A stretch of DNA of 32,000 nt from Chitinophaga pinensis (GTDB lineage Bacteria; Bacteroidota; Bacteroidia; UBA7662), in contig CALRMX020000004.1 of the NCBI GenBank assembly GCA_943369355.1, positions 347,654 through 379,653 on the forward strand, read 5' to 3'. Position 1 is the first letter of the stretch; every line of letters starts with the position of its first letter. The position numbers were made by a program, and so were the translations under genes. Below the pieces are notes generated by a model. The model did no database searches and was not told the DNA's origin. It saw only the letters and a program-made list of their open reading frames with translations. Shown piece by piece: positions 2,352 to 29,033 of the stretch.

Positions 2352-2384
2352 CCATGCGGGCGATTTACTAAATTGCCCGCATGG
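2352..2384 (+). promoter_or_regulatory. perfect 10-bp stem / 13-nt loop hairpin between the repeat-protein stop and the kinase start
   Basis: ccatgcgggc (2352-2361) is the exact reverse complement of gcccgcatgg (2375-2384). The 3' arm contains the ATG at 2381. No U-tract follows. Confidence 0.5.
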
Positions 2385-3472: not shown

Positions 3473-4494
3473 AGAGCCCGCTAATCCAAAACCCGCTATT
3501 TCGTTTGCTGGCGCCAGTGGTGTTCGGCTTGCTGGTGTATTTGATGCTGCTGTTGCTCAACAATCAAGTAGGGCAGCTAAGCACTCTTTTCCGATCGCAG
3601 GAGATGTACATCTGCATACTACTGGCAGCGATGCAGTTTGAAAGTTTGCGCTTCCTGGTAGGTCGCAGTCGCCTAGGCGATGCAGGCAACGAGCGCCGCC
3701 GCTGGTGGCTGCTGGCTTTGGCCGGTAACGGCATCGCCACGACTTTGCTGCTCACCGCATTGTGGGCCTACTACGTTTACGTAATTGGCTTTGCCCCGTC
3801 GGGCAGCGAGCTGCTTCGTTTTGCAGGCCTCTACTTGCCTGGTGGGTGGTTTTACTTGGCCTTATACGGCAGCCAATTTTATTTGCAACGCCAAAATATG
3901 GCACAGCTCGAGCAAGAAGCCGAAGAGCTGGCACGTTTAGAAGAGGAATTCAACGATTTCAGTGCCGAATTACATCCTACACTTTTGTACGATGCCCTCG
4001 AACAGCTGCTCATACGCCTGCCCCATCAGTCGGCCGAGGCCGACCGCTACCTCCAGCTGCTGGCTAGCCACTACCGCCACCGGCTCATCAACCGGCAGGA
4101 GGAGGTGATTCCACTGAAATACGAGCTCGAGGCCGCGGAGACCTTTTTGGCACTGCTGCGCCCCATACGGCGGCAGCAGCTGGTACTTGTTTGCGACCCT
4201 TTACCCCATGATGAGCTGTTGTTGCCCCCCGGCGCAGTGTTTACCGCCATTTATTGGCTGTTGCGGCACGGCATCAGCGGCGAAAACGAGTCGCCGATAC
4301 AGCTGCAGCTCGAAGGCCAGCAGCTTACCCTTCGCTGGGCGCAGCCCGGACGACTTCAGCCCGATGCCGAAAGCAGCTATGCCCTCGACCGGCTTGTACG
4401 TTCGTATCGCCGGCTGAGCAGTCAGCAGCCCGCAACCCAGCTGGGCGACAACGAAATTTGTGTTCACCTGCCACTCCTTCACCTCCACACCTGA
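3469..4494 (+). CDS. LytS-type histidine-kinase paralog with degenerate catalytic motifs (possible pseudokinase/co-sensor)
   Basis: Its ATGA start/stop overlaps the upstream kinase (3469-3472). The architecture is the same: a membrane N-terminal half, a coiled EQEAEELARLEEEF segment and an H-box-like ELHPTLLYDALEQL. The N-box is replaced by YWLLRHGISGENE and the GxGL motif by SYALDRL. Confidence 0.65.
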   Translation: MKSPLIQNPLFRLLAPVVFGLLVYLMLLLLNNQVGQLSTLFRSQEMYICILLAAMQFESLRFLVGRSRLGDAGNERRRWWLLALAGNGIATTLLLTALWAYYVYVIGFAPSGSELLRFAGLYLPGGWFYLALYGSQFYLQRQNMAQLEQEAEELARLEEEFNDFSAELHPTLLYDALEQLLIRLPHQSAEADRYLQLLASHYRHRLINRQEEVIPLKYELEAAETFLALLRPIRRQQLVLVCDPLPHDELLLPPGAVFTAIYWLLRHGISGENESPIQLQLEGQQLTLRWAQPGRLQPDAESSYALDRLVRSYRRLSSQQPATQLGDNEICVHLPLLHLHT

Positions 4495-4495
4495 T

Positions 4496-5242
4496 ATGCG
4501 TATACTCATCATCGAAGACGAACAGCCCGCCGCCGAACGGCTCGAAACTTTGCTCCGGCAGCTGGTGCCTGGTCTGCAGCTGTTGGCGGTGCTTCGCCGG
4601 GTCGACGAGGCCATCGATTGGTTTGCCACCACCACTGCAGCCCCCGAGCTCATCTTCACCGATGTGCAACTGCCCGATGGACTCAGCTTTCAGATCTTTA
4701 ACCGCTTCCCACCGCAAGTACCTGTGATTTTTGTGACTGCTTTCGACCAATATGCACTCGACGCCTTTCGCGTAAACGGTATCGATTACTTGCTCAAACC
4801 CATCAATGTTACCGAGCTCGACCGTAGCCTGCAGCGCGCACGCAGCCGACAGCCCGCAGCCGCACAGCTCAGCGAGTTGGGCAAACAATGGGGACAAAAA
4901 GCTTACAAAAGCCGCTTCATGGTGAAACTTGGCGAACATCTGCGTGCGGTGAGCGTAGAACAAATCCTGTTGTTTTATGCCGAAGGACGAACAGTATTCT
5001 TGTACACCACCGAAGGGCGGAGGTTTATCGTCGACTTCACGCTCGACCAATTAGAAGATGCCCTCGACCCGGCTCGTTTTTACCGCATCAACCGCAGTTT
5101 TGTGGTAGCGCTACACGCCATACAAGAGGTGGTGGTGTATAGCAGTAGCCGCTTACGGATTGTTACACAACCTTCTTTTGCCGAAGAACTTATTGTGAGC
5201 CGCGAAAAGGTAGGGCCTTTCAAGAGTTGGTACGAAGGATAG
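4496..5242 (+). CDS. LytR/AlgR-family response regulator (receiver plus LytTR DNA-binding domain)
   Basis: MRILIIEDEQPAAERL...FTDVQLPDGLSF...PVIFVTAFDQYALDAF..NGIDYLLKP is a receiver domain. The C-terminal part (FMVKLGEHLRAVSVEQILLFYAEGRTVFLYT...RFYRINRSFVVAL) is LytTR-like. The ATG at 4496 lies 1 nt after the upstream TGA (4492-4494). Confidence 0.9.
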   Translation: MRILIIEDEQPAAERLETLLRQLVPGLQLLAVLRRVDEAIDWFATTTAAPELIFTDVQLPDGLSFQIFNRFPPQVPVIFVTAFDQYALDAFRVNGIDYLLKPINVTELDRSLQRARSRQPAAAQLSELGKQWGQKAYKSRFMVKLGEHLRAVSVEQILLFYAEGRTVFLYTTEGRRFIVDFTLDQLEDALDPARFYRINRSFVVALHAIQEVVVYSSSRLRIVTQPSFAEELIVSREKVGPFKSWYEG

Positions 5243-5308: not shown

Positions 5309-5878
5309 ATGAAAGAGCATTATCAGCAGCAGTTTTCGGCCAAAGATTTCGTCAACGGGAAGTTGATCTTGGAAGGTTTATATGAAGCCTGTGCGTTTAA
5401 GGGATTGTCGTTAGAAGGGATTCGTTTGGCTGGACTGCGTTTTGAAGACTGTAGTTTTCTCGATTGTGATTTGAGTGGTTGCGATACCCACCAAACCGCT
5501 TTCCGCAACTGCGCGTTTAACGGTTGCAAGTTGCTGGGCTTTCGGTTCGACCGATGTAATCCGCTGGGATTGAGCCTCGCTTTTGATCGCTGCATACTCG
5601 ACAGGGCGGTATTTACTGGGCTCACCCTTACCGGACTCCAGCTTAACCGGTGCTCAGTGCAGGAAGTCGACTTTGTAAATGCCAAACTAAAAAATGCACA
5701 ATTCACCGCTTGCGATTTGCAAGGCAGCCTTTTTGTCCACACCTTGCTCGACGGGGCCGACTTTACCACTGCATTCAATTACCGCTTTAAGCCCGAAGAA
5801 AACAGCCTCATCAAAACGCATTTCAGCGCTGATGGACTTGCAGGTTTGCTTGTGCATCATGGATTGGTGATTAGCTAA
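5309..5878 (+). CDS. pentapeptide repeat-containing protein
   Basis: Continuous A(D/N)LxX-type pentapeptide repeats run through most of the 189 aa, for example LAGLRFEDCSFLDCDLSGCDTHQTAFRNCAFNGCKLLGFRFDRC and DFVNAKLKNAQFTACDLQGSLFVHTLLDGADFT. Confidence 0.85.
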   Translation: MKEHYQQQFSAKDFVNGKLILEGLYEACAFKGLSLEGIRLAGLRFEDCSFLDCDLSGCDTHQTAFRNCAFNGCKLLGFRFDRCNPLGLSLAFDRCILDRAVFTGLTLTGLQLNRCSVQEVDFVNAKLKNAQFTACDLQGSLFVHTLLDGADFTTAFNYRFKPEENSLIKTHFSADGLAGLLVHHGLVIS

Positions 5879-5946: not shown

Positions 5947-6438
5947 ATGCGCCGCCTTATCCGCACGTTATTGCTCATCCTCTTGCCTGTTGCCGCAGCT
6001 GCACAAGTGCGGCCGTGGGTAGAAGCAATCACTTACGATGCGGCCATCGATAGCCCATTTAGCTTGGGTGGAGACGCGAACATCTACCAATACCACAACG
6101 ATGGCTTGGGGGTGACCTTCCTTGGCGGTAGGCCTATGTTGCATGACGCTTTGCAAAAAGCTACGGCTCAATTAAAATTCGACCCCGCATTCGACGGCCT
6201 CGTGCGAATACGTTTTGTGGTAAACAAAGCTGGCGAGAGTGGCATGTTCCGAACCTATGTCTATACCGTTACGGGCGAGCAAGCCCACTTGCCTGCAGCC
6301 TTACTCAACCCCCTCGCCCAAGCCGTAAAACAGTTGAATGGCTGGCAACCCAAAATCATTCGCGATCAAACTGTGCATTATTATCAATATGTGATTTTCC
6401 GTATTCAAGGGGGTAAAGTCAGTCATATCTTGCCATGA
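5947..6438 (+). CDS. hypothetical secreted protein
   Basis: ORF 5941..6438. The ATG at 5947 gives MRRLIRTLLLILLPVAAAAQ, a signal peptide. Its stop overlaps the next gene's start (ATGA at 6435-6438). I do not recognise a family. Confidence 0.6.
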   Translation: MRRLIRTLLLILLPVAAAAQVRPWVEAITYDAAIDSPFSLGGDANIYQYHNDGLGVTFLGGRPMLHDALQKATAQLKFDPAFDGLVRIRFVVNKAGESGMFRTYVYTVTGEQAHLPAALLNPLAQAVKQLNGWQPKIIRDQTVHYYQYVIFRIQGGKVSHILP

Positions 6439-7253
6439 AACGTATCTTCTTTGCCCTTTTGCTGCTCAGCAGTAATATTCAGTTACATGCCCAACCCAAT
6501 TGTGCCGCATTACTATTCTACGGCGATACCGCTGCCTATGAAGCTTGTCAGTACCTCGAAACTGCTCTAAATGGCCACTATCAATACGAGGAGGAGTTTC
6601 AACGCATCTGCGATTCGGCACTGAGCATTTGTGGTCATTTCGCTTATGCCTGGCGCGAAAAAAGCACACCCTATGTAAAATCGGGTAATTTCCATTTGTG
6701 GATGAAGTATATGAACGAAGCCGTTCGTTACGATACCCTTGAGATGTTGCCTGCGAGAGCCAGTTGCCGAGGGAAGTTTTTTGCCGATTATGCAGGCGCC
6801 ATCGCCGATATCGAACTGTTTGAACGCAAATATCCGGGTAGTTTGGCCATGGCACACAACGGCACCTATAGTTTGCACATGGTGAAAGCTTTGAGTTACC
6901 GTGCCCTCGGCCAACGCAATCAAGCCATCAGCACCGCCGAAAGCTATTTACGGACCTATCCCAACAACATTGGCATGTACGACCGGCTCCATTTAGGAGT
7001 AATGTACTTTGAAGCTGGTCGGGTACCAGAAGCGAAAAAACAGCTCGAAACTCAGCTAAAAGAAAGTGCAATTGCAGAGGCAGCTTATGCGCTTGCGAAA
7101 ATTGCGAAAGCAGAAAAAAACGACGATTTAGCCAAAAAATACATTCAGCAAGCACGAGAATTATTCAACGCCGACCAGCAACTGTTCGACCCTTATCATT
7201 ATCTCGACGATCAGCTCTTTGAAGCTGAGCTGGTAGAAGCCGAGCGCTGGTAA
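6435..7253 (+). CDS. TPR-like repeat protein, secreted
   Basis: It has the signal peptide MKRIFFALLLLSSNIQLHAQ. Helical-repeat patterns resemble TPR (ALSYRALGQRNQAISTAESYLRTYPNN, GVMYFEAGRVPEAKKQLE, AYALAKIAKAEKNDDLAKKYIQQA). Confidence 0.65.
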   Translation: MKRIFFALLLLSSNIQLHAQPNCAALLFYGDTAAYEACQYLETALNGHYQYEEEFQRICDSALSICGHFAYAWREKSTPYVKSGNFHLWMKYMNEAVRYDTLEMLPARASCRGKFFADYAGAIADIELFERKYPGSLAMAHNGTYSLHMVKALSYRALGQRNQAISTAESYLRTYPNNIGMYDRLHLGVMYFEAGRVPEAKKQLETQLKESAIAEAAYALAKIAKAEKNDDLAKKYIQQARELFNADQQLFDPYHYLDDQLFEAELVEAERW

Positions 7254-9059: not shown

Positions 9060-10382
9060 TCAATGGTTTAAAAGCCAATTGATTCCGAGCTGTAAAGAAA
9101 GTGCACCTACTCTAAGTTCGTTTACACCTAAGGGTCGTAGGGGATGATAATAATTCAAAACTGCCTGCAATTCAATGTTTTGGTTCCACGCATAGGAAGT
9201 TCCCAAGCCAACATTAAGGTGGGAAAGGCTAATACCCTCTTTCCCTAATCGGGTTCGATTCACGAAATCCCTATCGGTATCCTCGAAATAATATTTGAAC
9301 GATTCGCTCAGAACTACATTACCTAAAACTCCTCCTGCTACCTGAAAACGCCACATACGGTAGTCTAATAGGGTATATCGGAGCTGCATTGGCACCAACA
9401 AATGTGATGACATCACACCTATTTCATCTGGTTCTGTTGTCAAATTTGAATATCCTGGGAAAAGCAACTTTTGCGATTGTGAAACCAACGAAAGGTCGTC
9501 AATCTCATTTTTTTGTAAGCCATATTGTACCCCAGCTTCTAGTTGCCAATGGTGCCAATCTAGCTGAAAGGCTCCACCAACAAAAGCACCATAACGCGTG
9601 TCAAAATTGGCATAATCAAATGGAGACAGACCACTAAATCTCGGTCCAGCCGAAAAAAATACACTGGGTTGGTTTCGTTTGCTGTCGTCCATTTTTAGCA
9701 AATCCTCGTCGTGATAGGCTTGCTCCAAACTGTCGATCGTCATGGTTGAGTTTTCTGCCGCTGAACTTGGAACCAGACTCTGACTTTCTACTTTGGACGT
9801 AGTACTGTCATTGGCCCCTTTGTGTTGGTTAGTCGTTAGAAAAGTTGTCAGCGTATCATCAGTGCTTGCTTCATGAGGCTTGTGCTGTAGTAGGTCAAGC
9901 GAATTTTGCTGAACGGATGCGCTATTGGTTTGATTAGAATCCAAAGTAACATTGGAAGGCATCTCGGCTGAAGAAGTTGGGTACTTGGGGTAATTGTTGG
10001 GTAAATTAATGATTTGGCCAATAGCGGCTATTTTATCAGAAGCCCCAGCTTGGGCCAAAGCTCTTTCGCGCACATACAATACTATCGTATCACGAATTAA
10101 AAGTGTGTCGCGTGTCACCACCGTGTGCTGCACCACTACTGTATCACGATTATCCGCAACTACGCTCAATTGTTGAACATTGCTTCCAAACCAAGACCAT
10201 GCAACACCAAAAAGAAGGCTGCTGAATAGGTAAGGCATCCACCACATCTTCCAAAATGCCCAGGTAGGTGCTGGAAAAGTATTGACATAACTTTTCCAAT
10301 ACGACTTTTTATACGGCACCTCGTAGTTCTCGAGCTGCTGACGGATTTTGTCTTCGAAAGATTCCTTCCCCATCATGCCCAT
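9060..10382 (-). CDS. membrane protein downstream of the ECF sigma: anti-sigma-like N-terminus, one TM, Ser/Thr/Asn-rich linker, C-terminal beta-barrel-like domain
   Basis: It overlaps the sigma gene by 10 nt (10373-10382). The N-terminus SFEDKIRQQLENYEVPY is followed by the TM segment WWMPYLFSSLLFGVAWSWF. A low-complexity region spans residues 120-230. The C-terminal half has alternating beta-strand patterns (RFQVAGGVLGNVVL, LSLQLGINWLL). Confidence 0.65.
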   Translation of the reverse strand: MGMMGKESFEDKIRQQLENYEVPYKKSYWKSYVNTFPAPTWAFWKMWWMPYLFSSLLFGVAWSWFGSNVQQLSVVADNRDTVVVQHTVVTRDTLLIRDTIVLYVRERALAQAGASDKIAAIGQIINLPNNYPKYPTSSAEMPSNVTLDSNQTNSASVQQNSLDLLQHKPHEASTDDTLTTFLTTNQHKGANDSTTSKVESQSLVPSSAAENSTMTIDSLEQAYHDEDLLKMDDSKRNQPSVFFSAGPRFSGLSPFDYANFDTRYGAFVGGAFQLDWHHWQLEAGVQYGLQKNEIDDLSLVSQSQKLLFPGYSNLTTEPDEIGVMSSHLLVPMQLRYTLLDYRMWRFQVAGGVLGNVVLSESFKYYFEDTDRDFVNRTRLGKEGISLSHLNVGLGTSYAWNQNIELQAVLNYYHPLRPLGVNELRVGALSLQLGINWLLNH

Positions 10383-10942
10383 TTTTTAGATGACCTATAT
10401 TGCTCCAAAATCGACTGTTGGAGCTTCAGACGAGCTTTGTGATAATTTGACTTGGATGCCCCCTCGGTTATACCAAGCTGCGCTGCGATCTCTTTGTGCG
10501 AATAGCCGTCAATGGCAAAAAGTGAAAACACCAGTCGGTAGGCTGGACTCAACTGTTGAATCAAACGGATTAGCTCTTCTGCATGCAACCTGTCTAAGGT
10601 GTCGTTAATTTCTAATTCGAGCACATGTTCATCGTCTAGAAAGTCGGTTTCGGAGCTTATACGCTGCCGGAGATTGAAGTGATCGATGGCTGTATTCACC
10701 ACTATTCGACGCAACCATGTGGTGAATGCAAACGAGGGATCGTAGCTTTTTAGATAGTTAAACATCTTAAAAAAAGCCTCATTCACGATTTCCAAACTGT
10801 CGTCTCGGTCTGCGCCATAGCGCATAGCCACCGACATTGCATAAGGAAAGGCCATTTCGTATAGACGATTTTGTGCACGTCTACTGCCCGCAATGCATTT
10901 ATGTATGAGAGGAAGAAGGTCTTTACTTTCGTGCAGCTTCAT
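10373..10942 (-). CDS. RNA polymerase sigma-70 family (ECF-type) sigma factor
   Basis: Region 2 is visible in NRLYEMAFPYAMSVAMRYGADRDDSLEIVNEAFFKMFNYL...F.TWLRRIVVNTAIDHF. Region 4 is visible in PAYRLVFSLFAIDGYSHKEIAAQLGITEGASKSNYHKARLKLQ. The start could also be the upstream ATG at 10975. Confidence 0.9.
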   Translation of the reverse strand: MKLHESKDLLPLIHKCIAGSRRAQNRLYEMAFPYAMSVAMRYGADRDDSLEIVNEAFFKMFNYLKSYDPSFAFTTWLRRIVVNTAIDHFNLRQRISSETDFLDDEHVLELEINDTLDRLHAEELIRLIQQLSPAYRLVFSLFAIDGYSHKEIAAQLGITEGASKSNYHKARLKLQQSILEQYRSSKKWA

Positions 10943-11402
10943 GCTTGCGGCTTTACCTTTTGGGGGAAGGTCCAACAGCCTATACCTTCAAAATCACGAA
11001 AGGTTTCCTCGTGTCAGAAATTTATTTTTTGGCACCTCTCCAAAACAGCAAAATATCACCCCTTAAATCTCAGCAGGAAAGGAGCGTACTGCTGAAAAAA
11101 GACAAGCTTGTTGAAGCGTGCACAGCATTTGTATTAACCGCTTTTATCCTGATAAAACTTATGGCCATTATATCCTTGGATTTAAGACCAAAAAGATCAA
11201 CCCAATTACATGGATTCATCTAGACCGTTCTTCTAAATCAACGCCCCTTTGCAACTCTAGCGAGTAGACCTGCGGCTAATTGTATTTCACTCGACTTTGA
11301 ACCCATGTCATTAACCAGCCTGAACGCCGTACAACTATTTTTTATTACCAAGGCAACCAACAACGATTAACCTCCGTATAGGCCAGCAATAATCCAAACA
11401 CG

Positions 11403-12230
11403 ATGTTACGAAATTTAGTCTTTTCTCTTTTCATCACTTCGGCTTCGCTTCTAAGCTGCTCAAAAAGCGATAACCCTTTCCGTAATCGCGATGAATTCCG
11501 ATACCAGCCAATAGCCGTGTCTGAAGTACCCCAGCAAGTCCTTAGCCATGCAGTAGCTACTTTCCCCACCGCAACGTTGTTGAGCGTAGGTAAAAACATC
11601 CATCTGGGCTTTGAGCTAAATCTCAACAATAAGTGGGATATGTATTATAGTGCACAAGGTGAGTTTGTTTTTAAGAACAACGACGACGATTCTGATCAGG
11701 CCATTCCTATTTCCAACCTTCCGCAAACAATCGTCGACTACATCAATGCGAATTTCCCTGGCCGAACAATCGTTTGGGCAGAAATCGACGACGACGAATA
11801 TGAGGTATATCTCAGCGATGGTACCGAGGTGAATTTTGACCGCCGCGGTCGTTTTCTAGAAATTGACCGCGACCGCGATGCCATAAATCCAGCTAATTTG
11901 CCTCAGATCATCCTCAGCTACATCAGCACCAATTTTCCGAATAGCACCATCATCAAGGCTGAGTTAGACGATAACTTTTATGAGGTAGAGCTAAACAACG
12001 GCATAGAACTTTATTTTGATGCACAAGGCAATTTCTTAGGATTGCAGGTTGATGACCGTACCGTTGACGTCGCTGAATTGCCCACAAACATCACCATGTA
12101 CGTGGGCCAAAACTACCCGAACCTGAGCATCTTTTCGGCCGAAATCGACAATAATAGGTACGAGTTGGAATTGTCGAACGGCATTGAGTTGTATTTCGAC
12201 CTGAAAGGAAATTTCCTTTACGCAGATTAA
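11403..12230 (+). CDS. PepSY-like (putative beta-lactamase-inhibitor-like) repeat lipoprotein
   Basis: It has the lipoprotein signal MLRNLVFSLFITSASLLSC. It then has four tandem modules of the form LP..I..YI..NFP...I..AE.D...YEV.L.NG.E..FD..G.F, which is characteristic of the PepSY-like domain family. Confidence 0.8.
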   Translation: MLRNLVFSLFITSASLLSCSKSDNPFRNRDEFRYQPIAVSEVPQQVLSHAVATFPTATLLSVGKNIHLGFELNLNNKWDMYYSAQGEFVFKNNDDDSDQAIPISNLPQTIVDYINANFPGRTIVWAEIDDDEYEVYLSDGTEVNFDRRGRFLEIDRDRDAINPANLPQIILSYISTNFPNSTIIKAELDDNFYEVELNNGIELYFDAQGNFLGLQVDDRTVDVAELPTNITMYVGQNYPNLSIFSAEIDNNRYELELSNGIELYFDLKGNFLYAD

Positions 12231-12296
12231 ACGTGTTACCGTACCCCACCAGCTTGAATGTAACCAAATTTTGATCTTTAAACTTTGAACCATAAT

Positions 12297-12938
12297 ATGC
12301 AACGTATCTTTTTTCTTTTATTCACTATCGCCACTTTGTCGGCGCAGGCACAATCAGAAACCCAAACTCTGCTCGGCAAGGGCAAATTAAACAGTTGGGG
12401 GGTCATGATTAGTCCCTCCTTACAAGCAGCGAGCATTTACGGCGAAACAACACTATTCACTCAAATGAAGGCCGGAGTGGTGCTCAACGACAATTGGACC
12501 ATCGGCGGTTTTGGTGGTGTGACCCCGTTAGAACTTTATCCTGTTGGCTTGCAGTCGCAATTTGCCATTCCCACTGACTTTCGGCTCTACACCAGCGGCG
12601 GATTTATTGAGTACCACTTGCAACCGACCAAACTGCTGCATTTTGCTTTCCCTTTGTCCGTGGGCGGCATCCTGAACGACATGGACGACCGCGATTGGGG
12701 AGGCGGATTTGACCTCGATGACGATGGTGAAGACTTCCGCATTTTTGTTGAGCCAGGGGTCAATCTCGAGCTCAATCTGCATAAATATGCCCGTCTATAC
12801 GCCGGGATGAGCTATCGCTTTCATGGGGGCAGTATTTACTCCGAAGGTCTTGCCGTACCATTTACAGGCGACTATCTTCTGATTAATGCTGGATTGAAAT
12901 TCGGCGTATTTAACTTCAAAGACATTAAAAAGAAATAG
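12297..12938 (+). CDS. hypothetical secreted / outer-membrane-like protein
   Basis: The ATG at 12297 gives MQRIFFLLFTIATLSAQAQ, a signal peptide. The body is Gly/aromatic-rich with a beta-strand pattern. A strong terminator follows. Confidence 0.6.
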   Translation: MQRIFFLLFTIATLSAQAQSETQTLLGKGKLNSWGVMISPSLQAASIYGETTLFTQMKAGVVLNDNWTIGGFGGVTPLELYPVGLQSQFAIPTDFRLYTSGGFIEYHLQPTKLLHFAFPLSVGGILNDMDDRDWGGGFDLDDDGEDFRIFVEPGVNLELNLHKYARLYAGMSYRFHGGSIYSEGLAVPFTGDYLLINAGLKFGVFNFKDIKKK

Positions 12939-13063
12939 TACAAAGAAGAGGTTGTTTACACGAATAAAAACCTGGGTGAGCGAGCCATTATTTTTGACAT
13001 GACCCCAGTTCACTTTGAACTAAAATTTCATTGACTGGCACCTTATAAAACCCATTTGGAGAC

Positions 13064-13102
13064 CCTACAACTAAACCTCGCACCGCTATGCCGCGGTGCG
13101 GG
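13064..13102. repeat. 39-bp hairpin-containing direct repeat, copy 1
   Basis: cctacaactaaacctcgcaccgctatgccgcggtgcggg is identical to 13180-13218. Confidence 0.9.
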
Positions 13103-13110
13103 TTTTTTAT
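13075..13110 (+). terminator. Rho-independent terminator for the 12297..12938 gene
   Basis: The 8-bp GC stem is cgcaccgc (13080-13087) paired with gcggtgcg (13093-13100), with a 5-nt loop. It is followed by ggTTTTTTaTTT (13101-13112). Confidence 0.75.
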
Positions 13111-13179
13111 TTGCTTCCACTCGCTTGCGGCAACAGGCCGCAGACTCGGGATTAGCTTCGCTGATCCCAATGAGGGGAT

Positions 13180-13218
13180 CCTACAACTAAACCTCGCACC
13201 GCTATGCCGCGGTGCGGG
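13180..13218. repeat. 39-bp hairpin-containing direct repeat, copy 2 (abuts and overlaps the tRNA 3' end)
   Basis: It is identical to 13064-13102. Its last 8 nt (13211-13218) supply the tRNA acceptor 3' strand. Confidence 0.9.
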
Positions 13219-13294
13219 AGGGATTCGAACCCCCGGTACCTTGCGGTACACTTGATTTCGAATCAAGCACATTCGACCACTCTGACACCTCTCC
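13210..13294 (-). tRNA. tRNA-Ser (anticodon CGA), class II with long variable arm; acceptor and D stems imperfect, so possibly impaired
   Basis: The reverse strand reads GGAGAGG TG TCA GAGTGGTCGAA TGT G CTTGA TTCGAAA TCAAG TGTACCGCAAGGTACC GGGGG TTCGAAT CCCTC CCGCACC G. The anticodon stem, the variable arm (GTACC/GGTAC) and the T-loop TTCGAAT are good. The acceptor 3' strand CCGCACC pairs with GGAGAGG at only 5 of 7 positions. There is no encoded CCA. Confidence 0.7.
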
Positions 13295-13348
13295 AGGATC
13301 GGGGTGCAAATATATCAAGGAAGATTGGAATTCAATAAATGACGCTTA
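13277..13348. repeat. 72-bp direct repeat, copy A (tRNA-Ser 5' 18 nt, its promoter, and the 3' end of the GIY-YIG ORF)
   Basis: ccactctgacacctctccaggatcggggtgcaaatatatcaaggaagattggaattcaataaatgacgctta. It differs from copy B at a single position (c/t at 13300 vs 13678). Confidence 0.9.
13307..13335 (-). promoter_or_regulatory. Bacteroidota-type promoter (-33 TTG / -7 TATATTTG) for tRNA-Ser
   Basis: The reverse strand reads TTG-N18-TATATTTG-N12-GGAGAGG (tRNA +1). TATATTTG matches the TAnnTTTG -7 consensus exactly. Confidence 0.6.
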
Positions 13349-13572
13349 ATCCAAGCCCTGCCCCAACCAGACTTTAAATAAGTCTCCCTTTTACGAGCTA
13401 AAGTTCTATTTGGGAATTCTTCGTAGTGTAAAAGCGTCCATGGCCCTTTACCTTTCGTCCAACGATGCTTGCCTTTTTCTTGGTTATGTTCTTTAAAGCG
13501 CCGGTTTAAATCGGATGTTTCACCGATGTAAAGCTGCTTTTCAACATTCACGAGTATGTAAACAAAATGCAT
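13315..13572 (-). CDS. GIY-YIG nuclease superfamily protein (small UPF0213/YhbQ-like type)
   Basis: From the internal ATG at 13572 the sequence is MHFVYILVNVEKQLYIGETSDLNRRFKEHN...TKGKGPWTLLHYEEFPNRTLARKRETYLKS. This shows the GIY(VYIL)...YIG...R...H...E motif order. The longer track ORF (to 13638) adds an Arg/Pro-rich non-homologous extension. Confidence 0.8.
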   Translation of the reverse strand: MHFVYILVNVEKQLYIGETSDLNRRFKEHNQEKGKHRWTKGKGPWTLLHYEEFPNRTLARKRETYLKSGWGRAWIKRHLLNSNLP

Positions 13573-13654
13573 ATACAATTCTTGAATACATTCGCCACGT
13601 GACGCAGCTGGCTGCGTACGTGGTCGCGTTTGCCGCAAAACGGCAGCACGCGAA

Positions 13655-13726: not shown

Positions 13727-13897
13727 TTCACGAACTATACCTTTTGGCACTAAATCTAAAATCCCATTAAATTACTTTAATAATTCAGGAAAAAACGCAT
13801 CCAACAAGTTGTCAACCTAAAAATTTACTTGAAAGTTATGTAATATTGAGGCGCCGTGTTATCCACATGCGGCGTGTATAACCTCAACCGCTAAACT

Positions 13898-15673
13898 GTG
13901 ACCCACCGAATATTGTATCGGCTGCTGCTAATTATGCTCTTAGCAGGGTTAGATGCAAGTGCCCAAATAGATTTCGATGGCATGTTGGCTGCTCCAGCCG
14001 ACAGTCCACCTCGCGACCGCATGCTGGAACAGCGTATCGCCAACAGAATTGCAGAATATTACAGCCGAGATTTGTTTTTGGTACATGCCTGGGCCGATCC
14101 CGAAGAAGCCCGAGAGCTCAATGAGCGGAATATGGTTTTGCCCGGCATGCCGCTGCAACTCACCGACGACAACCTCCCCATCGAACCCGATGCGGCCAGA
14201 GGACCTCGCACGCTGCTCCTCTACCTCGATACCAGCTTTACCCCAAGTGACGTACGCTTTGTAGAGGTTTTGTTGCGGGGCATCGACAGTTGGGACCAAA
14301 GCCGTGGCGATAAAGTAGAACTTATCCCCATCGTTTTCCCGCGTAAAAAAGACTGGACCGACTGGCTCAAAGAATTGCCCAAAAGCGTAGCTACACCTCA
14401 GCCCGCACCACAACAGCCCAATTACCCGGTTTATTTACCATCCCCCGAAAAAGAAGATCCAGCCCCAGCGCCAATACCGGCCGAAACCATACCCATTTGG
14501 CAATGGGCTGTACTTATTGGTGGTTTAATTGTCCTCATAGGCATTTTTGTGTTGCTTGGCATGTGGATTCAAAAACGATCAACTCAAGAGCTCATTCGTT
14601 TGGCAACCCAGCCGCAACAACGCCCTGAGGTGTTTAGTCTGCATCCTGAACCTAAAACCGACACTGTAAGTACAGCTGAGCCGGTGGTAGTAAACACTTC
14701 GGGATGGGAACCCCATGCGGCACGCGACTTTGTGATTAGTCAAACCATTGGCGAGCCTGCACGTACGGCTAAAATATTAGAAGGCTGGTCGCGACAAGGC
14801 GAAGAAGGCCTCAAACGTGCCGCTGCATCGTTGGCAGCCAGTAACGACCAATTGCTGTTGCTCATGCGGGGCAAAATGGATGCAACCGCCGAAACCGCCA
14901 TTTCTCAAGAGCTTCAACCGCTACGCACGCAGCAAAAAGAACAGTTTGCTGATGCCCTCATTGCATTGGCCAACGCATTGTCGTACCAAGGTCGCGACTT
15001 GGAGCCGGTGAACCATTTTGGATTTTTATCGCAGCTCGACGATCAGTCGCTCATGCATTTATTCAAAGAGGAGGCACCACGTTTGGTAGCGCTTCTCATT
15101 GCACAGTTGCCCACCGACCAGGCCAAACGTTTACTCCGCCAATTCGATGCACCTACACGTTCGCAGGTATTGGTGAATTTGGGCAGTATCAGTCAACTGC
15201 CGTTGAGTCTGTACCAAGAAATAGGTCAGCATTTCGCTCGCAAGGCGATGGAGGTTAAGCGTTTGCAAGGTCTTCCGTTTGATGGCCAACAGGTGCTTGT
15301 ACAATTGCTCGAAAATTTCGACGAAGACGAGCAGAACAACATCATCGAACACATGGCCATTAGCGACCCACAGCAGGCCGAAACCACCAACAAACGCCTC
15401 GTTCGTTTCAGCAGATTGCGCGACTACCCAGCCAATGTATTGCAAAAGGCTTGGCTCGAAGTGGATACAGAATTGATGGTACAAGCATTGGCCGGACTCG
15501 ACAAACAAATTGCTCGTCATGTATTGAGCACCCGCGCCAAACGCGAACGCGACCTCATATTATCAGAGCTGGAAAACGAAGCAGACATATCGCCCGCACT
15601 CACCAGCAAGGCAAGGAAACACATGCTCACGCTCCTGAAAAACTACTTAAAAGAACAACAATGGTCCGCCTGA
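13898..15673 (+). CDS. membrane-anchored FliG-like protein: signal peptide, periplasmic domain, Pro-rich linker, one TM, cytoplasmic FliG N/M/C-like domains
   Basis: The GTG start gives MTHRILYRLLLIMLLAGLDASAQ. The TM segment IWQWAVLIGGLIVLIGIFVLLGMWI is followed by QKRS. The C-terminal roughly 315 aa align by eye with FliG. EEAPRLVALLIAQLPTDQAKRLLRQF resembles the EHPQTIALILSYL... M-domain. DGQQVLVQLLENFDEDEQNNIIEHMAISDPQQAE...LVRFSRL...VLQKAWLEVDTELMVQALAGLDKQIARHVLSTRAKRERDLILSELE resembles the GG..AAEILN.LD...ILE.I.E.DP.LAE.I...MF.FEDL...IQ..LREVD...LA.ALKGA.E.L.EKI..NMS.RAAE.L.EDLE C-domain. Confidence 0.8.
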   Translation: MTHRILYRLLLIMLLAGLDASAQIDFDGMLAAPADSPPRDRMLEQRIANRIAEYYSRDLFLVHAWADPEEARELNERNMVLPGMPLQLTDDNLPIEPDAARGPRTLLLYLDTSFTPSDVRFVEVLLRGIDSWDQSRGDKVELIPIVFPRKKDWTDWLKELPKSVATPQPAPQQPNYPVYLPSPEKEDPAPAPIPAETIPIWQWAVLIGGLIVLIGIFVLLGMWIQKRSTQELIRLATQPQQRPEVFSLHPEPKTDTVSTAEPVVVNTSGWEPHAARDFVISQTIGEPARTAKILEGWSRQGEEGLKRAAASLAASNDQLLLLMRGKMDATAETAISQELQPLRTQQKEQFADALIALANALSYQGRDLEPVNHFGFLSQLDDQSLMHLFKEEAPRLVALLIAQLPTDQAKRLLRQFDAPTRSQVLVNLGSISQLPLSLYQEIGQHFARKAMEVKRLQGLPFDGQQVLVQLLENFDEDEQNNIIEHMAISDPQQAETTNKRLVRFSRLRDYPANVLQKAWLEVDTELMVQALAGLDKQIARHVLSTRAKRERDLILSELENEADISPALTSKARKHMLTLLKNYLKEQQWSA

Positions 15674-16716
15674 TTTTCGCTCTAAGCCTTTGTTTGTTGT
15701 CGTGGGAGGTACTGGCTCAAGATACTCCACGTCCTTCCGATGCCCAGGTATTGCGCATACGTTCTGTTGAGCGCATCATCAGTCAGCTACGTGAAAGCCT
15801 CCCCACCTATTCCGAAGATTGTCAGCGTATCGCCTTGATGATGCCCGATTTTAAGGAGAAGAACGTAAGCGCTGAAGAGGCCATGCTCATTCGTAATCAG
15901 CTTGCCCAGCAAGTTCAAAAAACGGCTTTTACGGTGGTAGACGTTCCCGAATTCCACGAATATCGACTTACACGGGTTTTTAGTTCCGATAGCGGCTTGC
16001 TGTATCAGCGGAATTCCCCCACACGCTTACTGCGAACCAACTCAGAAGCAACCGAACTGCTGGTAAAAAAGCACAAACTCGACGGCATCATTTACACGCA
16101 AATCACCTATGATTCACTCATTGGGCATACCGTTAGCATGCAATTGGTGCAGCAACGTTCGCGCGAGATAATTTGGAACCGCACCTTCCACGCCAATATA
16201 GGCATGGTCAGAGCACGAGAAAGCCAACATCTCGTTGCCTTGGGAATGGGCATGAATAGCGTGCGCTTCGTGAATGGTCTAGGAGGATACCGCGTAGCAC
16301 TTCCCAGTGTACATATCCGATGGATGTGGCGCCAACCCGTCAATGAGGCCCGTACGGTGAACTTGTTTACACTCACCCAGTTCAGCATGTACCAAGCAAA
16401 CTTTAAAGCCAACGACAGCTTGAGCTTTAATTTTTGGCGCCCTGTTCCTGAACTTGGGCTCGGATATTCACTTTCCTTTTTGAATAAAAAGAATAGTAGT
16501 GATTATTGGTTCGAGGGATATCAATCGTTTACACTACATTTTTTCAACCGTATGCGAACTAGCATCAACCAGGGTTTGTCGTTCAATTTTACGCGAAATC
16601 TGGTAGTGATGGGCGAAGTAAGCTTCATAACGGGCGCGCCTGAGTTGCACAACTATAACAATGTGGTCACTTTAAATCAGTTTCAGTATGCAGTACGGCT
16701 CAACTACCGTTTTTAA
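15661..16716 (+). CDS. outer-membrane protein: signal peptide, periplasmic alpha/beta domain, C-terminal beta-barrel ending in an aromatic residue
   Basis: The internal ATG at 15661 of track ORF 15451..16716 gives MVRLIFALSLCLLSWEVLAQ. It overlaps the FliG-like stop by 13 nt. The C-terminal half has alternating beta-strand patterns and ends ...QYAVRLNYRF, an OMP beta-signal-like terminal Phe. Confidence 0.75.
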   Translation: MVRLIFALSLCLLSWEVLAQDTPRPSDAQVLRIRSVERIISQLRESLPTYSEDCQRIALMMPDFKEKNVSAEEAMLIRNQLAQQVQKTAFTVVDVPEFHEYRLTRVFSSDSGLLYQRNSPTRLLRTNSEATELLVKKHKLDGIIYTQITYDSLIGHTVSMQLVQQRSREIIWNRTFHANIGMVRARESQHLVALGMGMNSVRFVNGLGGYRVALPSVHIRWMWRQPVNEARTVNLFTLTQFSMYQANFKANDSLSFNFWRPVPELGLGYSLSFLNKKNSSDYWFEGYQSFTLHFFNRMRTSINQGLSFNFTRNLVVMGEVSFITGAPELHNYNNVVTLNQFQYAVRLNYRF

Positions 16717-16720
16717 GTTG

Positions 16721-17242
16721 ATGCTGCTGCTGCTACTAGCAGCCGCATGTGCCAAAAAGTCTACGCCCGAGGCCGAAGTCGCTCCCGTTCGTCGTACTGT
16801 GGTACAGAAAAAAGGACCTGAACCTTTACGGATAAAATACTCGAACCAAACCACCCAAATGGATCTTGCCTTGGAAATGGAAGATGAGGTGATTGTGGAA
16901 ATGCGCGGCATTCGGCTAGATTCAACACAACTCGTTGCTGACAGCACCGTTCTCGCAAATCAGCAGCAGGAACAACAAGAACGTCAGCTTTTGAGTGTGC
17001 AACGCGCGCTCAAAAATTACCGCATGGCGCAGGAGGCCTTACTCCGCAAACAATACGACAAAGCCATGCTATATATCGATGCTTGTTTGCTTGAAGGCGA
17101 AACCGCTGAAGCTTTGGCTTTTAAGGGGTCGGTTTTTTACCTGCAAGGCAATAAAGTGGAGGCCAAAAAATTGTGGCAGAAGGCTAGGCAACTCGACCCT
17201 GATATGCCCGATGATGTGTATTACGAAACCCGAAAAAACTGA
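16721..17242 (+). CDS. TPR-containing lipoprotein
   Basis: The ATG at 16721, 4 nt after the upstream TAA, gives MLLLLLAAACAKKS with a lipobox LAAAC. The C-terminal part is TPR-like: YDKAMLYIDACLLEGETAEALAFKGSVFYLQGNKVEAKKLWQKARQLDPD. Confidence 0.7.
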   Translation: MLLLLLAAACAKKSTPEAEVAPVRRTVVQKKGPEPLRIKYSNQTTQMDLALEMEDEVIVEMRGIRLDSTQLVADSTVLANQQQEQQERQLLSVQRALKNYRMAQEALLRKQYDKAMLYIDACLLEGETAEALAFKGSVFYLQGNKVEAKKLWQKARQLDPDMPDDVYYETRKN

Positions 17243-23208: not shown

Positions 23209-26022
23209 CTAACGAATCAATTGTATTTCTTTTCGAAAGACTTTCCACGTACTTGTTTCGCCTCGGTATTGCAGTACAACGAGGTAGTTTCCTGCCGGAC
23301 AAACTTGACCGTTGACGTTACCATCCCAATAATGTTCAAAATTAGTTGTACTAAAAACTTCTTGGCCCCAACGATTAAATACTTTCAGCTGAAGTTGGTC
23401 GGCACCCAATAAAACATAGGATAGCCTTTCGTTGACGCCATCACCATTGGGAGAAAAGATATTGGGGAAAAGGAGAACTAGCGGCTCATTGACCCGAATC
23501 ACCCGAATAAAACTATCAACACAAGCTGTAAGACTGTCTTGTACTACTAGCTTAATTGCTTTATTCCCTCTACGTTCGAACGAAATTTGAAGGTCTTTGT
23601 CCATGGACACAGTAACACTATTGGTGTCCCATCGATAAGCAGTTGCGTTGACACTGTAGTTTATTCCATTTAGGAGTTCAAATACCTCCAAAGTATCTCT
23701 AGTCAGTGAAAAGTGCGCTTTTAAAGGCCTAAGCGTTAGTTGTATTGGTTGACTTGCAAAAATGCTATCACAAGAACCAAATTGGTACCGAGCAAGTGCT
23801 CTGTACTCTCCTGTTCTGTTTACCAACCTTACGCCCCCTTGGGTTTGTCCGATTGAAGAACCGTTGAAAATCCATTCAACTTGTTGAGGTGGTGGAATAA
23901 CTTGTAAGGCAACTACACTATCTCTACATAAAGATGCATTCGGATGTAATTGTAAACGTGCATCCGGGAATTCGTCTTTTGAAAACCGTATGGTATCGCT
24001 CAGCTGACGACAACCATTTGTATCGATAGCTAAGCAATAATATGATCCAGTATCGGATATACTCAAGCTGGTACCTGAAGATAATACCAAAGCAGAACCT
24101 AAACGGTACCACGAAAAAGATACTAAATTCGAATTCAGCACACGTAAATCAACGGTATGCCCTTCGCAAAAAGAGGTATTGGAAGTGGTGTTGAGACTTA
24201 ATTGGTAAGGAGGAAAATTCCGTACTTCTAGCACATTAGTACTATCGTTAAAGCAAGGTGAGCCTCGGTAACGCAAATAATAACGACCAGGTTGGTGTAT
24301 TCGTAAAAAGGTATCCACGGCATTGGCTATTGGAACGCCATTCCGTATCCATTGGTAGCTCATGCCTAAAATCCTAGGGACCGCTATTAGCAGTGTGTCG
24401 GTGCTACATTTTCTTAAACTATCGGGTAAAACACCTTTCGGATTAACCGCCGAGGCATCACGCACAAAAATAGAATCTACATAAGTTGAGCATCCTGGGA
24501 TGGTCATTTCAACGATATACCAACCTAATCGTGCTGTATTGTACATAAACGGCCTTGGATTTTGCAAAGTATCGTTGAAGCCATTTGGACCTGTCCACCG
24601 ATAATGTGCCTGTGGGTAATACGCAGCGCTAAGTTTTACGGAATCACCCATACAAATTGGACTATTCACATCAATACCCGTGGCAAATTCGCTGAAGTTC
24701 GAAAAATAAGCGTACCTCGCTTGCGAATTGGTACCACCGTGTAATACCGCCATTTGAAATACATCGCTAGTGTTGCGAACCAGTAGAGCATTATTTGCCG
24801 CCAATATTGAATTTGGAACTAAATAGCGTGCAACTAGCCAATTATTGCCGCCTCCAGTAACTGGCAAAAAAGTTGAAGCTGGAATTAAGTTTGGTACTCC
24901 ATTCAAAAGAAAGTTTGTTTCACCACCACGATTAACTGTTAAAAGAATTATGAGCGTATCGGTTCCTGAACGAACAACACCCACTTCGGGTGAACCTGTA
25001 CAATACACAGGTGGGAGCTGCGCAGCTCCCATTTGGCAACCAATACCCGATACATGAAATACTGATATGGGCTCGTTTGCTGAGATAAATACATTTGGAC
25101 TATCTAGTGCGAAAGTAAAGGTGGACCCTGCCTGTGGTAATGTAACAAACGGTGTTGAATTAGCGCGCAAGTAAACACTTGTGTTAGGGGCGGTAGTTGT
25201 AATACTAATCAACTCACCCAGAGCCGATAATCCTCCATTCACAGCAATATAACCTCTTCCTAGATTCTCAATTGGTAATATTTGATCACCAATAAGCTCT
25301 AGGCAACCAGTACCAAATCCGATAGCATCTTGTTTAACAGTTATCGCTATTGGATGATTACTCGAAACATAACTTCCAGCCGGAATCTGTGCTCCAACGG
25401 TAGTATCCGAAACAACGCTGTAGGTTTGCCCTTCATGAAGTAAAACTTGAAACGGAACCCCTGCTGCATGACCCAACACATTTACTGAGGGAGTGATTGA
25501 AACCAAGGTACTATCGCGTGTAGCTACTATGTCGAAAGAAGAATTTGCTCCAAGTATAGCTGCTCGGTCGGGATAAAAGAGATTTTGCATGGGTATTCGG
25601 AATGCTGTACCCAAGGCATTTTTACCCTTTAAGCTGAATATTTCCGCATTACACCCACAACTACCTCCCCCAACTTCCCAATAAGCATTTATTCTCTTGT
25701 CGGACCAGACGTATATGCCCCATCTCTGAATCTGATTAGGCACTTTTAATTCCAAAGAGTCAATAAACGGAGTCAAATCAATGGTCACCGTTTGGTTTGG
25801 CGCTATACTTCTTACAATGGAAGTAAACCAGTTTACCCCCGGCACCCTTACGTGTACAAAGGCACCTTGAGCATGAGCGGTTAAGCGAAGTAAGATGGGT
25901 CTATCCCGTTGATCGGTAGTTTGTTCCACCTCTGGAACAGCAAACCAAAACAAGGTGTCGACCTGTCCATAGGTTTGTGTATAGGAAAAAAAGATGCCTA
26001 AAAGTACAATCCATCTTTTCAT
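23209..26022 (-). CDS. T9SS type-B C-terminal sorting domain (gliding motility-associated CTD) cell-surface protein
   Basis: It has the signal peptide MKRWIVLLGIFFSYTQTYGQ. Internal Ig-like modules include Y.W...G.......PG.Y........C (YRWTGPNG, YQWIRNGV, FSWYRLGS). The C-terminus is FPNIFSPNGDGVNERL...LKVFNRWGQEVF....WDG...G...P.G.Y, the type-B (CHU_C-like) sorting domain. Confidence 0.85.
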   Translation of the reverse strand: MKRWIVLLGIFFSYTQTYGQVDTLFWFAVPEVEQTTDQRDRPILLRLTAHAQGAFVHVRVPGVNWFTSIVRSIAPNQTVTIDLTPFIDSLELKVPNQIQRWGIYVWSDKRINAYWEVGGGSCGCNAEIFSLKGKNALGTAFRIPMQNLFYPDRAAILGANSSFDIVATRDSTLVSITPSVNVLGHAAGVPFQVLLHEGQTYSVVSDTTVGAQIPAGSYVSSNHPIAITVKQDAIGFGTGCLELIGDQILPIENLGRGYIAVNGGLSALGELISITTTAPNTSVYLRANSTPFVTLPQAGSTFTFALDSPNVFISANEPISVFHVSGIGCQMGAAQLPPVYCTGSPEVGVVRSGTDTLIILLTVNRGGETNFLLNGVPNLIPASTFLPVTGGGNNWLVARYLVPNSILAANNALLVRNTSDVFQMAVLHGGTNSQARYAYFSNFSEFATGIDVNSPICMGDSVKLSAAYYPQAHYRWTGPNGFNDTLQNPRPFMYNTARLGWYIVEMTIPGCSTYVDSIFVRDASAVNPKGVLPDSLRKCSTDTLLIAVPRILGMSYQWIRNGVPIANAVDTFLRIHQPGRYYLRYRGSPCFNDSTNVLEVRNFPPYQLSLNTTSNTSFCEGHTVDLRVLNSNLVSFSWYRLGSALVLSSGTSLSISDTGSYYCLAIDTNGCRQLSDTIRFSKDEFPDARLQLHPNASLCRDSVVALQVIPPPQQVEWIFNGSSIGQTQGGVRLVNRTGEYRALARYQFGSCDSIFASQPIQLTLRPLKAHFSLTRDTLEVFELLNGINYSVNATAYRWDTNSVTVSMDKDLQISFERRGNKAIKLVVQDSLTACVDSFIRVIRVNEPLVLLFPNIFSPNGDGVNERLSYVLLGADQLQLKVFNRWGQEVFSTTNFEHYWDGNVNGQVCPAGNYLVVLQYRGETSTWKVFRKEIQLIR

Positions 26023-26110
26023 GCATCTAAACTACATACTAGAGCATTAGAAATGTCATGAAATTAACACAAAACACGTTTAAGGCAATCAAGCTGTGTC
26101 CAAATTCACC

Positions 26111-28090: not shown

Positions 28091-28097
28091 CTCAGGC

Positions 28098-29018: not shown

Positions 29019-29033
29019 AATTAAGATTCTTTA

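Follow-up and report, generated by a model that had tools for sequence, protein, structure and literature searches.

What can a flagellar rotor protein be doing when it carries its own membrane anchor, and when the only other flagellar genes beside it are those of a stator? The question is raised by a gene in a 32,000-nucleotide stretch of the Chitinophaga pinensis contig CALRMX020000004.1 (the window, meaning this whole stretch). Canonical FliG is a soluble protein of about 330 amino acids (aa), whereas the protein encoded here has 591 and brings a signal peptide and a transmembrane (TM) helix to its FliG-like part. To our knowledge, the flagellar rotor and stator occur only within a machine of about 25 proteins built around the type III export gate. 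The data presented below suggest a stripped-down flagellar-type motor that serves something other than swimming. In the reading that we favour, and to which we give an about even chance (probability near 0.5), the protein would be a natural FliF-FliG rotor belonging to a minimal, non-flagellar motor of flagellar type, with a MotAB stator and with its output directed into the cell envelope. The two rotor proteins would be fused, cut down to the parts that form the ring and receive torque, and combined with a stator of their own and two envelope proteins; this set of genes is under strong purifying selection in many lineages where no further flagellar genes lie close by. Each part comes from a known family, the novelty lying in how the parts are combined, in the lack of export and axial components and in the range of hosts. 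The literature searched (mostly without subscription journals), including reviews and phylogenies of MotAB-type motors, holds no description of the fusion family or of its gene cassette.

Architecture and conservation of the fusion protein

An earlier reading of the window, made from the sequence only and without database searches, had recognised a FliG-like region in the C-terminal part of the protein, and homology searches bear this out. The Pfam models of the FliG middle and C-terminal domains score above their gathering thresholds (FliG_M 37.9 bits with a cut-off of 25, FliG_C 40.1 bits with a cut-off of 23.3), and a phmmer search of solved structures aligns residues 278-581 with residues 11-313 of Salmonella FliG and residues 377-586 with residues 113-322 of Aquifex FliG (E 4e-11). 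When the profile of the whole family is compared with E. coli FliG by hhalign, the match extends over FliG residues 6-318 with a probability of 98.9% (E 1.8e-17). The Pfam FliG_N model gives no score at residues ~278-370 of the window protein, which align with FliG 6/11-108; in one relative (P0015) it matches the equivalent place with an E-value of 3.6e-9. The FliG equivalog model TIGR00207 reaches 47.9 bits against a cut-off of 226.7. Judged from these alignments, the cytoplasmic part is a whole, divergent FliG, for which the evidence of an N-domain is weak in the window protein itself.

The altered FliG signatures pointed out in the sequence-only reading (EAPR, DG and LVRFSRL) are all found in the protein, the last at residues 501-507. 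The position of the EHPQR motif reads EAPRL (EAPR at residues 392-395), and among 133 relatives only its glutamate is conserved (117 sequences), the histidine, proline, glutamine and arginine positions being variable; with EHPQR lost, binding of FliM is unlikely. The GG hinge has become DG (residues 462-463), with the second glycine kept in the family (111 of 133). As for the charged C-terminal helix, said to be retained, the segment TRAKRERDLILSELENE is indeed present at residues 545-561. In the hhalign mapping on E. coli FliG, R281 corresponds to R549 and D289 to E557, whereas the counterpart of D288 is a serine (S556). Position 549 is basic in 128 of the 133 relatives (arginine in 105, lysine in 23), position 556 is serine in 60 and aspartate or glutamate in 33, and position 557 is acidic in 70. 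The torque helix would therefore be largely preserved and the FliM-binding surface would not.

The topology proposed for the remainder of the protein agrees with hydropathy and charge. Only two hydrophobic segments are present, at residues ~4-24 and 200-224. The first lies in MTHRILYRLLLIMLLAGLDASAQ (residues 1-23), where a signal-peptide layout of n-, h- and c-regions, with an ASA-Q site, can be read; relatives have the same layout, and the peptide announced as cleavable-looking is probably cleaved, which would leave an exported domain behind it. The second is a TM helix flanked by an acidic, Pro-rich stretch on its N-terminal side and by QKRS on its C-terminal side, so that the positive-inside rule puts the FliG part in the cytoplasm, and a periplasmic placement of that part is not borne out. 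Residues 24-199 are thus predicted to be periplasmic and residues 225-591 cytoplasmic, a topology that rests on hydropathy, on charge and on the same layout being kept in more than 100 relatives. The Pro-rich linker in front of the helix is poorly conserved and of variable length across the family. Public gene calls start the window protein at Met13 (579 aa), by which the n-region and half of the hydrophobic core are lost; the GTG start fits the family pattern better, because it restores a normal n-region and core. All 36 bases of window positions 13898-13933 are identical in all strains available and decide for neither start. Upstream, a candidate hairpin at 13846-13887 in the 5' leader does not outdo shuffled sequence (z = -1.2), and scans for sigma-70-type promoters and for terminators remained below shuffled expectation, sigma-70 models being ill-suited to Bacteroidota.

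A beta-alpha-beta segment of the exported domain had been likened to the ring-building motifs (RBMs) of FliF and SctJ, as a weak visual impression, and here sequence profiles, Pfam, an AlphaFold2 (AF2) model and Foldseek concur. In flagellar FliF, which assembles into a ring of about 33-34 subunits, RBM1 and RBM2 surround the export gate and RBM3 builds the S-ring. A profile of 59 periplasmic domains of the family, compared with 177,635 sequences of the PDB, matched FliF and nothing else (E 0.0018, 0.03, 0.12 and 0.41), the aligned part being the end of RBM3, with another, weak stretch at its start. The Pfam family PF08345 (YscJ_FliF_C) is matched by 38 of the 59 domains taken alone (best E 1.2e-8), with matches spanning model positions ~76-147 of 147, and no other family recurs; a precomputed annotation of the collection also lists PF08345 for the relative P0100 (locus L017). 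By hhalign the domain falls on residues 374-435 of E. coli FliF, including a common RGD...F motif. No match to RBM1 or RBM2 (Pfam YscJ_FliF) was found in the fusion protein.

When the alignment is supplied to AF2, the periplasmic region is modelled as one domain of about 115 aa with the order alpha1-beta1-[insert]-beta2-alpha2-beta3 (mean predicted local distance difference test score, pLDDT, 81.6); a single-sequence model of the whole protein was uninformative (pLDDT 43.5). The insert between beta1 and beta2 measures 35-60 aa and carries a conserved LPG(L/M)P motif, and an RGD...FP motif stands at the alpha2-beta3 end. In FliF RBM3, it is the beta-collar that sits where this insert is found. 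A Foldseek search of the PDB with the model returns chains of the FliF S-ring/RBM3 first (probability 0.93-0.99) and PrgK/SctJ next. By profile and by model, then, the periplasmic domain appears to be a ring-building motif of the FliF RBM3 type.

The family to which the protein belongs was exposed by an exhaustive HMMER search of 1.84 billion cluster representatives (1324 matches, 201 of them at E<1e-10); word-indexed searches had returned only a same-species cluster or canonical FliGs, and scans of genome collections gave nothing with the single protein and one Balneolales metagenome-assembled genome (MAG) with a four-sequence alignment. About 130 of the best 150 matches are full-length relatives of 540-740 aa that align with nearly the whole query at 22-30% identity. 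Nearly all of them have a basic n-region, a hydrophobic core ending in an A-x-A/AQ-type site, and one strong TM segment at ~200-300. Conservation falls in four places: the N-terminal helix, the LPGLP motif, the VLVDxxY...FP segment and the FliG part. The best conserved periplasmic stretch, VLVDxxY...FI..LV....LD..RGD.V.V....FP, is the beta-alpha-beta segment mentioned above, and G83, D138 and F376 are invariant residues specific to the family. Between the window and strains with 98% identical protein, the ratio of nonsynonymous to synonymous substitution rates (dN/dS) is 0.05, at a dS of 0.17. PGAP and IMG give members the name "flagellar motor switch protein FliG" or "FliG C-terminal domain-containing protein", so that they are read as ordinary FliG.

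This conservation, together with the low dN/dS, excludes both a frameshift or mis-joined open reading frame (ORF) and a decaying relic. The N-terminal part is not a separate ORF, given that the same architecture is found in about 130 relatives. A remnant of a lost flagellum, deprived of present function, might be suspected from the small number of flagellar homologues present and from the degeneracy of motifs such as EHPQR; what is observed instead are intact ORFs of conserved length in ~130 relatives, invariants that belong to this family only, strong constraint between strains and a partnership of genes that persists under permuted order (locus L017, see below). A relic or pseudogene is therefore rejected as very improbable.

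Operon partners and recurrence of the cassette

The fusion gene is followed on the same strand by genes for a FlgO-like exported protein (gene 2), a tetratricopeptide repeat (TPR) lipoprotein, MotA and MotB, the successive genes overlapping by 13, 29 and 1 nucleotides before a last gap of 9. The idea of a self-anchored rotor, advanced in the sequence-only reading, is made much stronger by flagellar-type MotA and MotB proteins being encoded in the same operon. The best NCBIfam matches of MotA are the flagellar MotP, PomA and MotA (E 1e-33 to 1e-25, against 4e-5 for TolQ), at scores below equivalog level (best 115.4 bits against 394 for MotP), and its best PDB match is Aquifex MotA (8gqy, E 3.6e-27), PomA being matched too. 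MotB comprises a plug, a TM helix with a conserved aspartate and an OmpA-like peptidoglycan-binding domain, and likewise stays below equivalog level (best 149.1 bits against 283). In an alignment with E. coli MotA, all seven sequences keep the prolines equivalent to P173 and P222, and each of the six cassettes checked has the MotB aspartate (D32 equivalent, in W-x-x-x-Y-x-D); on these alignments, the residues of the proton path are intact. At the R90 position of MotA the six cassettes have K, K, Q, K, K and S (lysine in four), and at the E98 position MAFFT gives D, V, E, G, A and E, with HMMER assigning an arginine to the window copy.

MotAB-like motors also power Zorya-like anti-phage systems, and the MotB protein does match the ZorB models of PADLOC (E 1e-20). 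This match, however, reflects generic MotB homology: PADLOC finds no ZorA, ZorC, ZorD or ZorE among the five proteins, MotA is closest to flagellar MotA/PomA, and the partners are FliF- and FliG-like instead of nucleases or helicases. A Zorya-like or other defence system is accordingly rejected, its probability being slighter still than that of a relic.

Gene 2 encodes an exported protein whose window copy matches no Pfam family. Twelve diverged members of its family align over their whole length, have a signal peptide and share the N-terminal pattern IRRVAFY...S...IQGKIE...V.PE...D.T.T...LDG.LEG...L.LR....T..IVW. The likeness to FlgO comes from sub-threshold matches to the Pfam model (PF17680) in 9 of 14 members (12.9-20.6 bits against 22.6), the window copy giving none. 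The C-terminal half shows alternating hydrophobicity and often an aromatic last residue (...NYRF in the window copy), and it may be an outer-membrane barrel, which would locate the protein in the outer membrane. When profiles of gene 2 were compared with the PDB, about 13 flagellins were matched and nothing else, always at flagellin residues ~78-172 (the D1 region), with E-values of 1.4e-5, 5.6e-5 and 6.3e-5 from three different alignments; hhalign against E. coli FliC gives a probability of 65-71% (E 4-6e-5). The same stretch of gene 2 also yields the sub-threshold FlgO match, and the two matches imply different folds.

The five genes recur in the window order, with unrelated flanks, in three metagenome contigs (L001, L002 and L003), in a fourth one in which a PorP/SprF gene stands directly after motB (L011), and in a Fibrobacteraceae MAG where they adjoin a Fib_succ_major gene (L015). 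In a further metagenome contig (L017) they are permuted to gene 2, TPR, fusion, MotA and MotB, so that gene 2 is co-located with the fusion gene in L001, L002, L003, L011, L015 and L017. The TPR gene is present in every cassette examined. Other loci depart from this composition: in an NCBI MAG (L010, GCA_964653565.1) gene 2 is missing, the fusion gene lies between two TPR genes and MotB, 501 aa long, includes a SPOR domain, and in a MAG labelled Pseudomonadota (L016, GCA_043820105.1) large TPR proteins adjoin the fusion gene, with no MotAB within 10 kb. The JGI contig carrying P0010 ends after the TPR gene and has gene 2 as an ORF of the same size and position. Upstream ORFs in L009 and L010, considered as displaced copies of gene 2, were rejected, being a saccharopine dehydrogenase and a TPR protein. 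The other carrier labels include a Balneolales MAG (L009) and, for homologues of gene 2, MAGs of Elusimicrobiota/Endomicrobia; all these labels rest on few NCBI names.

No other flagellar gene was found within the 32-kb window, nor within flanks of 8-10 kb in eight additional, independent contexts. This bears on the proposal that the protein is an accessory of a true flagellum, whether as an alternative rotor subunit, as a stator reservoir or brake, or as part of a second, divergent system. Balneolales and Pseudomonadota, to which two of the MAGs with relatives are assigned, include flagellated species, FlgO is a flagellar H-ring-associated protein in Vibrio, and databases call relatives of the protein "flagellar motor switch protein FliG". 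Nevertheless, other carriers are labelled Fibrobacteraceae and Elusimicrobiota/Endomicrobia, groups that are generally not flagellated, and the window itself carries PorP/SprF and CHU_C genes of the type IX secretion system (T9SS), typical of Bacteroidota. The FliM-binding motif is, moreover, lost throughout the family, and the cassette has its own dedicated stator. With the lack of other flagellar genes in the flanks added to these points, a flagellar accessory appears improbable.

Proposed mode of action and comparison with known machines

If the favoured reading is correct, the fusion protein would be exported through Sec and probably cleaved, to become a single-pass membrane protein with an RBM3-like domain in the periplasm and a full FliG in the cytoplasm. 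By analogy with FliF and with engineered fusions, the periplasmic domains would oligomerise into an inner-membrane ring, beneath which the FliG C-domains would form a second one. A stator of MotA5B2 type would be anchored to the peptidoglycan through the OmpA-like domain of MotB, and proton or sodium flow via the MotB aspartate and the MotA prolines would turn MotA against the FliG torque helix, with the result that the fusion ring is turned or strained. More speculatively, the lack of a FliM/FliN-binding motif, of RBM1 and RBM2 and of any nearby rod, hook or filament gene would leave the output inside the envelope, where it might be handed on to the other two conserved partners, the FlgO-like protein and the TPR lipoprotein, which could act as an outer-membrane bushing, a scaffold or a load.

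Several observations weigh against a rotor of this kind. A rotating ring to which nothing axial is attached has no obvious output, and ring formation and rotation are inferred. The canonical charge pairs are kept only partly, with serine as the D288 equivalent, and the E98 position of MotA is acidic in only three of six cassettes, in a manner that depends on the alignment. Concerning the periplasmic domain, the Foldseek E-values are ~1e-2 and the TM-scores ~0.4, the window protein alone has no Pfam FliF match, and the hhalign comparison with E. coli FliF as a single sequence reaches only 10% probability at E 0.003. FlgO matches lie below the Pfam threshold, and any role given to the FlgO-like or the TPR protein is conjecture. 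Finally, the cassette is not constant: MotAB is missing within 10 kb in L016, and L010 has no FlgO-like gene.

Some of these points would fit a non-rotary force transducer, comparable to Tol-Pal or ExbBD-TonB, in which MotAB would push the FliG part of a single fusion protein or of a few copies, and strain would travel through the TM helix and the Pro-rich linker to the periplasmic domain and from there to the FlgO-like outer-membrane protein, for gating, tethering or envelope maintenance. A long periplasmic linker rich in proline is reminiscent of TonB and TolA, one of the conserved partners is exported and possibly resides in the outer membrane while the other is a periplasmic TPR lipoprotein, no axial component is there to take up torque, and the rotor-stator charges are only partly canonical. 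Yet the periplasmic domain resembles specifically RBM3, the S-ring builder of FliF, the stator is flagellar in type, with a peptidoglycan-binding MotB unlike ExbD or TolR, and FliG is known to work in rings only. A transducer is for these reasons considered unlikely, if still a contender. The rotor reading can also be carried further, to a free-standing rotary motor that never had, or has shed, type III export, the C-ring switch and the filament, that is coupled to the FlgO-like and TPR proteins and that has spread among Fibrobacterota, Bacteroidota and beyond; this extension is put forward tentatively, as somewhat less probable than the rotor itself. Were the lineage old and not derived, it would represent, still living, the module required by some flagellar-origin scenarios that put "rotor and stator first", and the likeness of gene 2 to the flagellin D1 region (E ~6e-5) would then deserve attention.

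With the canonical rotor (FliF and FliG, driven by MotA5B2 or PomA5B2) the cassette shares the order of parts across the membrane, that is an RBM3-like domain, a TM helix and a part corresponding to the N, M and C domains of FliG, as well as the conserved equivalent of R281 in the torque helix. The stators have in common the MotA P173 and P222 equivalents and the MotB plug, aspartate and OmpA-like domain. The differences are that the canonical rotor consists of two polypeptides and the present one of a single chain, that FliF has RBM1, RBM2 and an N-terminal TM1 which the fusion lacks (a cleavable-looking signal peptide taking the place of TM1), and that the beta-collar of about 110 aa in FliF is replaced by a short insert. 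Genes for the export gate, C-ring, rod, hook and filament are likewise missing from the vicinity of the cassette.

A natural FliF-FliG fusion of about 330 aa has been described in Chlamydiaceae (Bergeron 2016, PeerJ / bioRxiv 10.1101/023564). Like the window protein, it is a single polypeptide with periplasmic RBM-type domain(s), TM segments and a cytoplasmic FliG-like part, in a host that is not considered flagellated. Its composition is different, however, as it has RBM2 and an unassigned second domain, two TM helices and only a FliG-M-like region, and it has been discussed as a type III secretion system partner, with no dedicated MotAB described; the window fusion, encoded in one operon with MotAB, combines an RBM3-like domain with a full FliG in which the C-domain that generates torque is kept. 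FliF-FliG fusions engineered from the Salmonella and Vibrio proteins are reported still to form rings (PMC6079021, PMC10941966, PMC11481574; e.g. PDB 8z4d/8z4g), and they show that joining the two proteins is compatible with ring assembly. They are nevertheless laboratory constructs with a complete FliF (RBM1-3, two TM helices) placed in a full flagellum. The 8z4d chain is among the matches of both halves of the window protein.

High-torque motors are surrounded by envelope scaffolds, formed by FlgO, FlgP, FlgT and MotX/MotY in the H-ring and T-ring of Vibrio and by the TPR proteins PflA and PflB in Campylobacter. A FlgO-like exported protein and a periplasmic TPR protein encoded beside stator genes recall these scaffolds, but the similarity of gene 2 to FlgO is below threshold (20.6 against 22.6 bits), gene 2 has an extra C-terminal half of about 160 aa, and no homologue of FlgP, FlgT, MotX or MotY was detected here. 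Work other than turning a filament is also done by MotAB-family ion-driven units in GldLM/PorLM, ExbBD-TonB, TolQRA, AglRQS and ZorAB. In those systems the output goes through the B subunit or through a TonB/TolA-type partner, and none has FliG or FliF, whereas the cassette pairs an A subunit of the flagellar clade with FliG.

If the cassette does encode a motor, the FliG-MotA torque interface would be usable outside flagella, and five genes with one rotor protein would offer a very small system for structural and single-molecule study of torque. Ideas on the sequence in which flagellar modules originated could also be tested on a concrete case, and the cassette would add a second ion-driven envelope machine in Bacteroidota beside GldLM/PorLM. 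In practical terms, database labels such as "flagellar motor switch protein FliG" could mislead the inference of motility.

Features of the window and its surroundings

Table 1. Positions in the window of the fusion gene and its parts, of its operon partners and of the T9SS cluster.
Feature	Positions	Strand	Basis and remarks
FliF(RBM3-like)-TM-FliG fusion gene, 591 aa	13898-15673	+	GTG start; ORF list and domain searches
Signal peptide, residues 1-23 (MTHRILYRLLLIMLLAGLDASAQ)	13898-13966	+	...DASA-Q junction, probably cleaved; hydropathy and relatives' layout
Periplasmic ring-building-motif domain, FliF RBM3-like, residues ~36-150	14003-14347	+	Profiles, AF2, Foldseek
Pro-rich periplasmic linker, residues ~165-199	14390-14494	+	Read from sequence
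Single TM helix, residues 200-224, then QKRS	14495-14569	+	Kyte-Doolittle peak 2.87
FliG N-domain-like helical region, residues ~278-370	14729-15007	+	phmmer/hhalign; weak in window protein itself
FliG middle domain, residues 383-454	15044-15259	+	Pfam FliG_M, E 2e-9
FliG C-terminal domain with torque helix, residues 485-586	15350-15655	+	Pfam FliG_C, E 4.8e-10
Gene 2, exported protein, 351 aa	15661-16716	+	Weakly FlgO-like alpha/beta N-terminal domain
TPR lipoprotein, 184 aa, lipobox LAAAC	16688-17242	+	Pfam TPR_2, E 8e-7
Flagellar-type MotA/PomA-like stator A subunit, 276 aa	17242-18072	+	Pfam MotA_ExbB, E 6e-23, 81.4 bits
MotB stator B subunit, 217 aa	18082-18735	+	Pfam MotB_plug, E 3e-13; OmpA, E 8e-15
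T9SS cluster	23209-31982	-	Two ~940-980-aa CHU_C proteins, PorP/SprF, 659-aa protein without family

The T9SS cluster, with its PorP/SprF gene (28098-29018) and two large CHU_C genes, identifies the host as a T9SS-bearing member of Bacteroidota. One of the CHU_C proteins has an IgGFc-binding domain and the other a weak, sub-threshold cohesin match. Given that a PorP/SprF gene also follows motB in the distant locus L011, a link between the cassette and the T9SS or surface proteins is possible.

Just upstream of the cassette, a tRNA-Ser gene (anticodon CGA, 13209-13294, minus strand) adjoins a small gene with a GIY-YIG nuclease domain (13315-13638, minus strand); an ORF that overlaps the tRNA (12988-13272, minus strand) is probably not a gene. 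Farther upstream lie a PepSY-like repeat protein (11403-12230) and an exported protein of 217 aa without family (12285-12938), preceded on the minus strand (9060-10975) by an ECF (extracytoplasmic function) sigma factor gene (10373-10975) and then the gene of a protein of 440 aa in which an outer-membrane beta-barrel domain is found; the two may form a sigma/anti-sigma-like pair. The plus strand of the first part of the window (2381-5242) has two adjacent His_kinase genes of LytS type followed by a LytTR response regulator, and farther on lie the genes of a pentapeptide-repeat protein (5309-5878) and of a TPR protein (6435-7253); the LytS/LytTR, pentapeptide-repeat and TPR genes are present as well in the same-species contig L004. 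Base composition drifts strongly along the window: G+C amounts to 54-58% in its first 5 kb, falls to about 45% near the cassette and reaches 35-41% in the genes for T9SS cargo at the far end (26000-32000).

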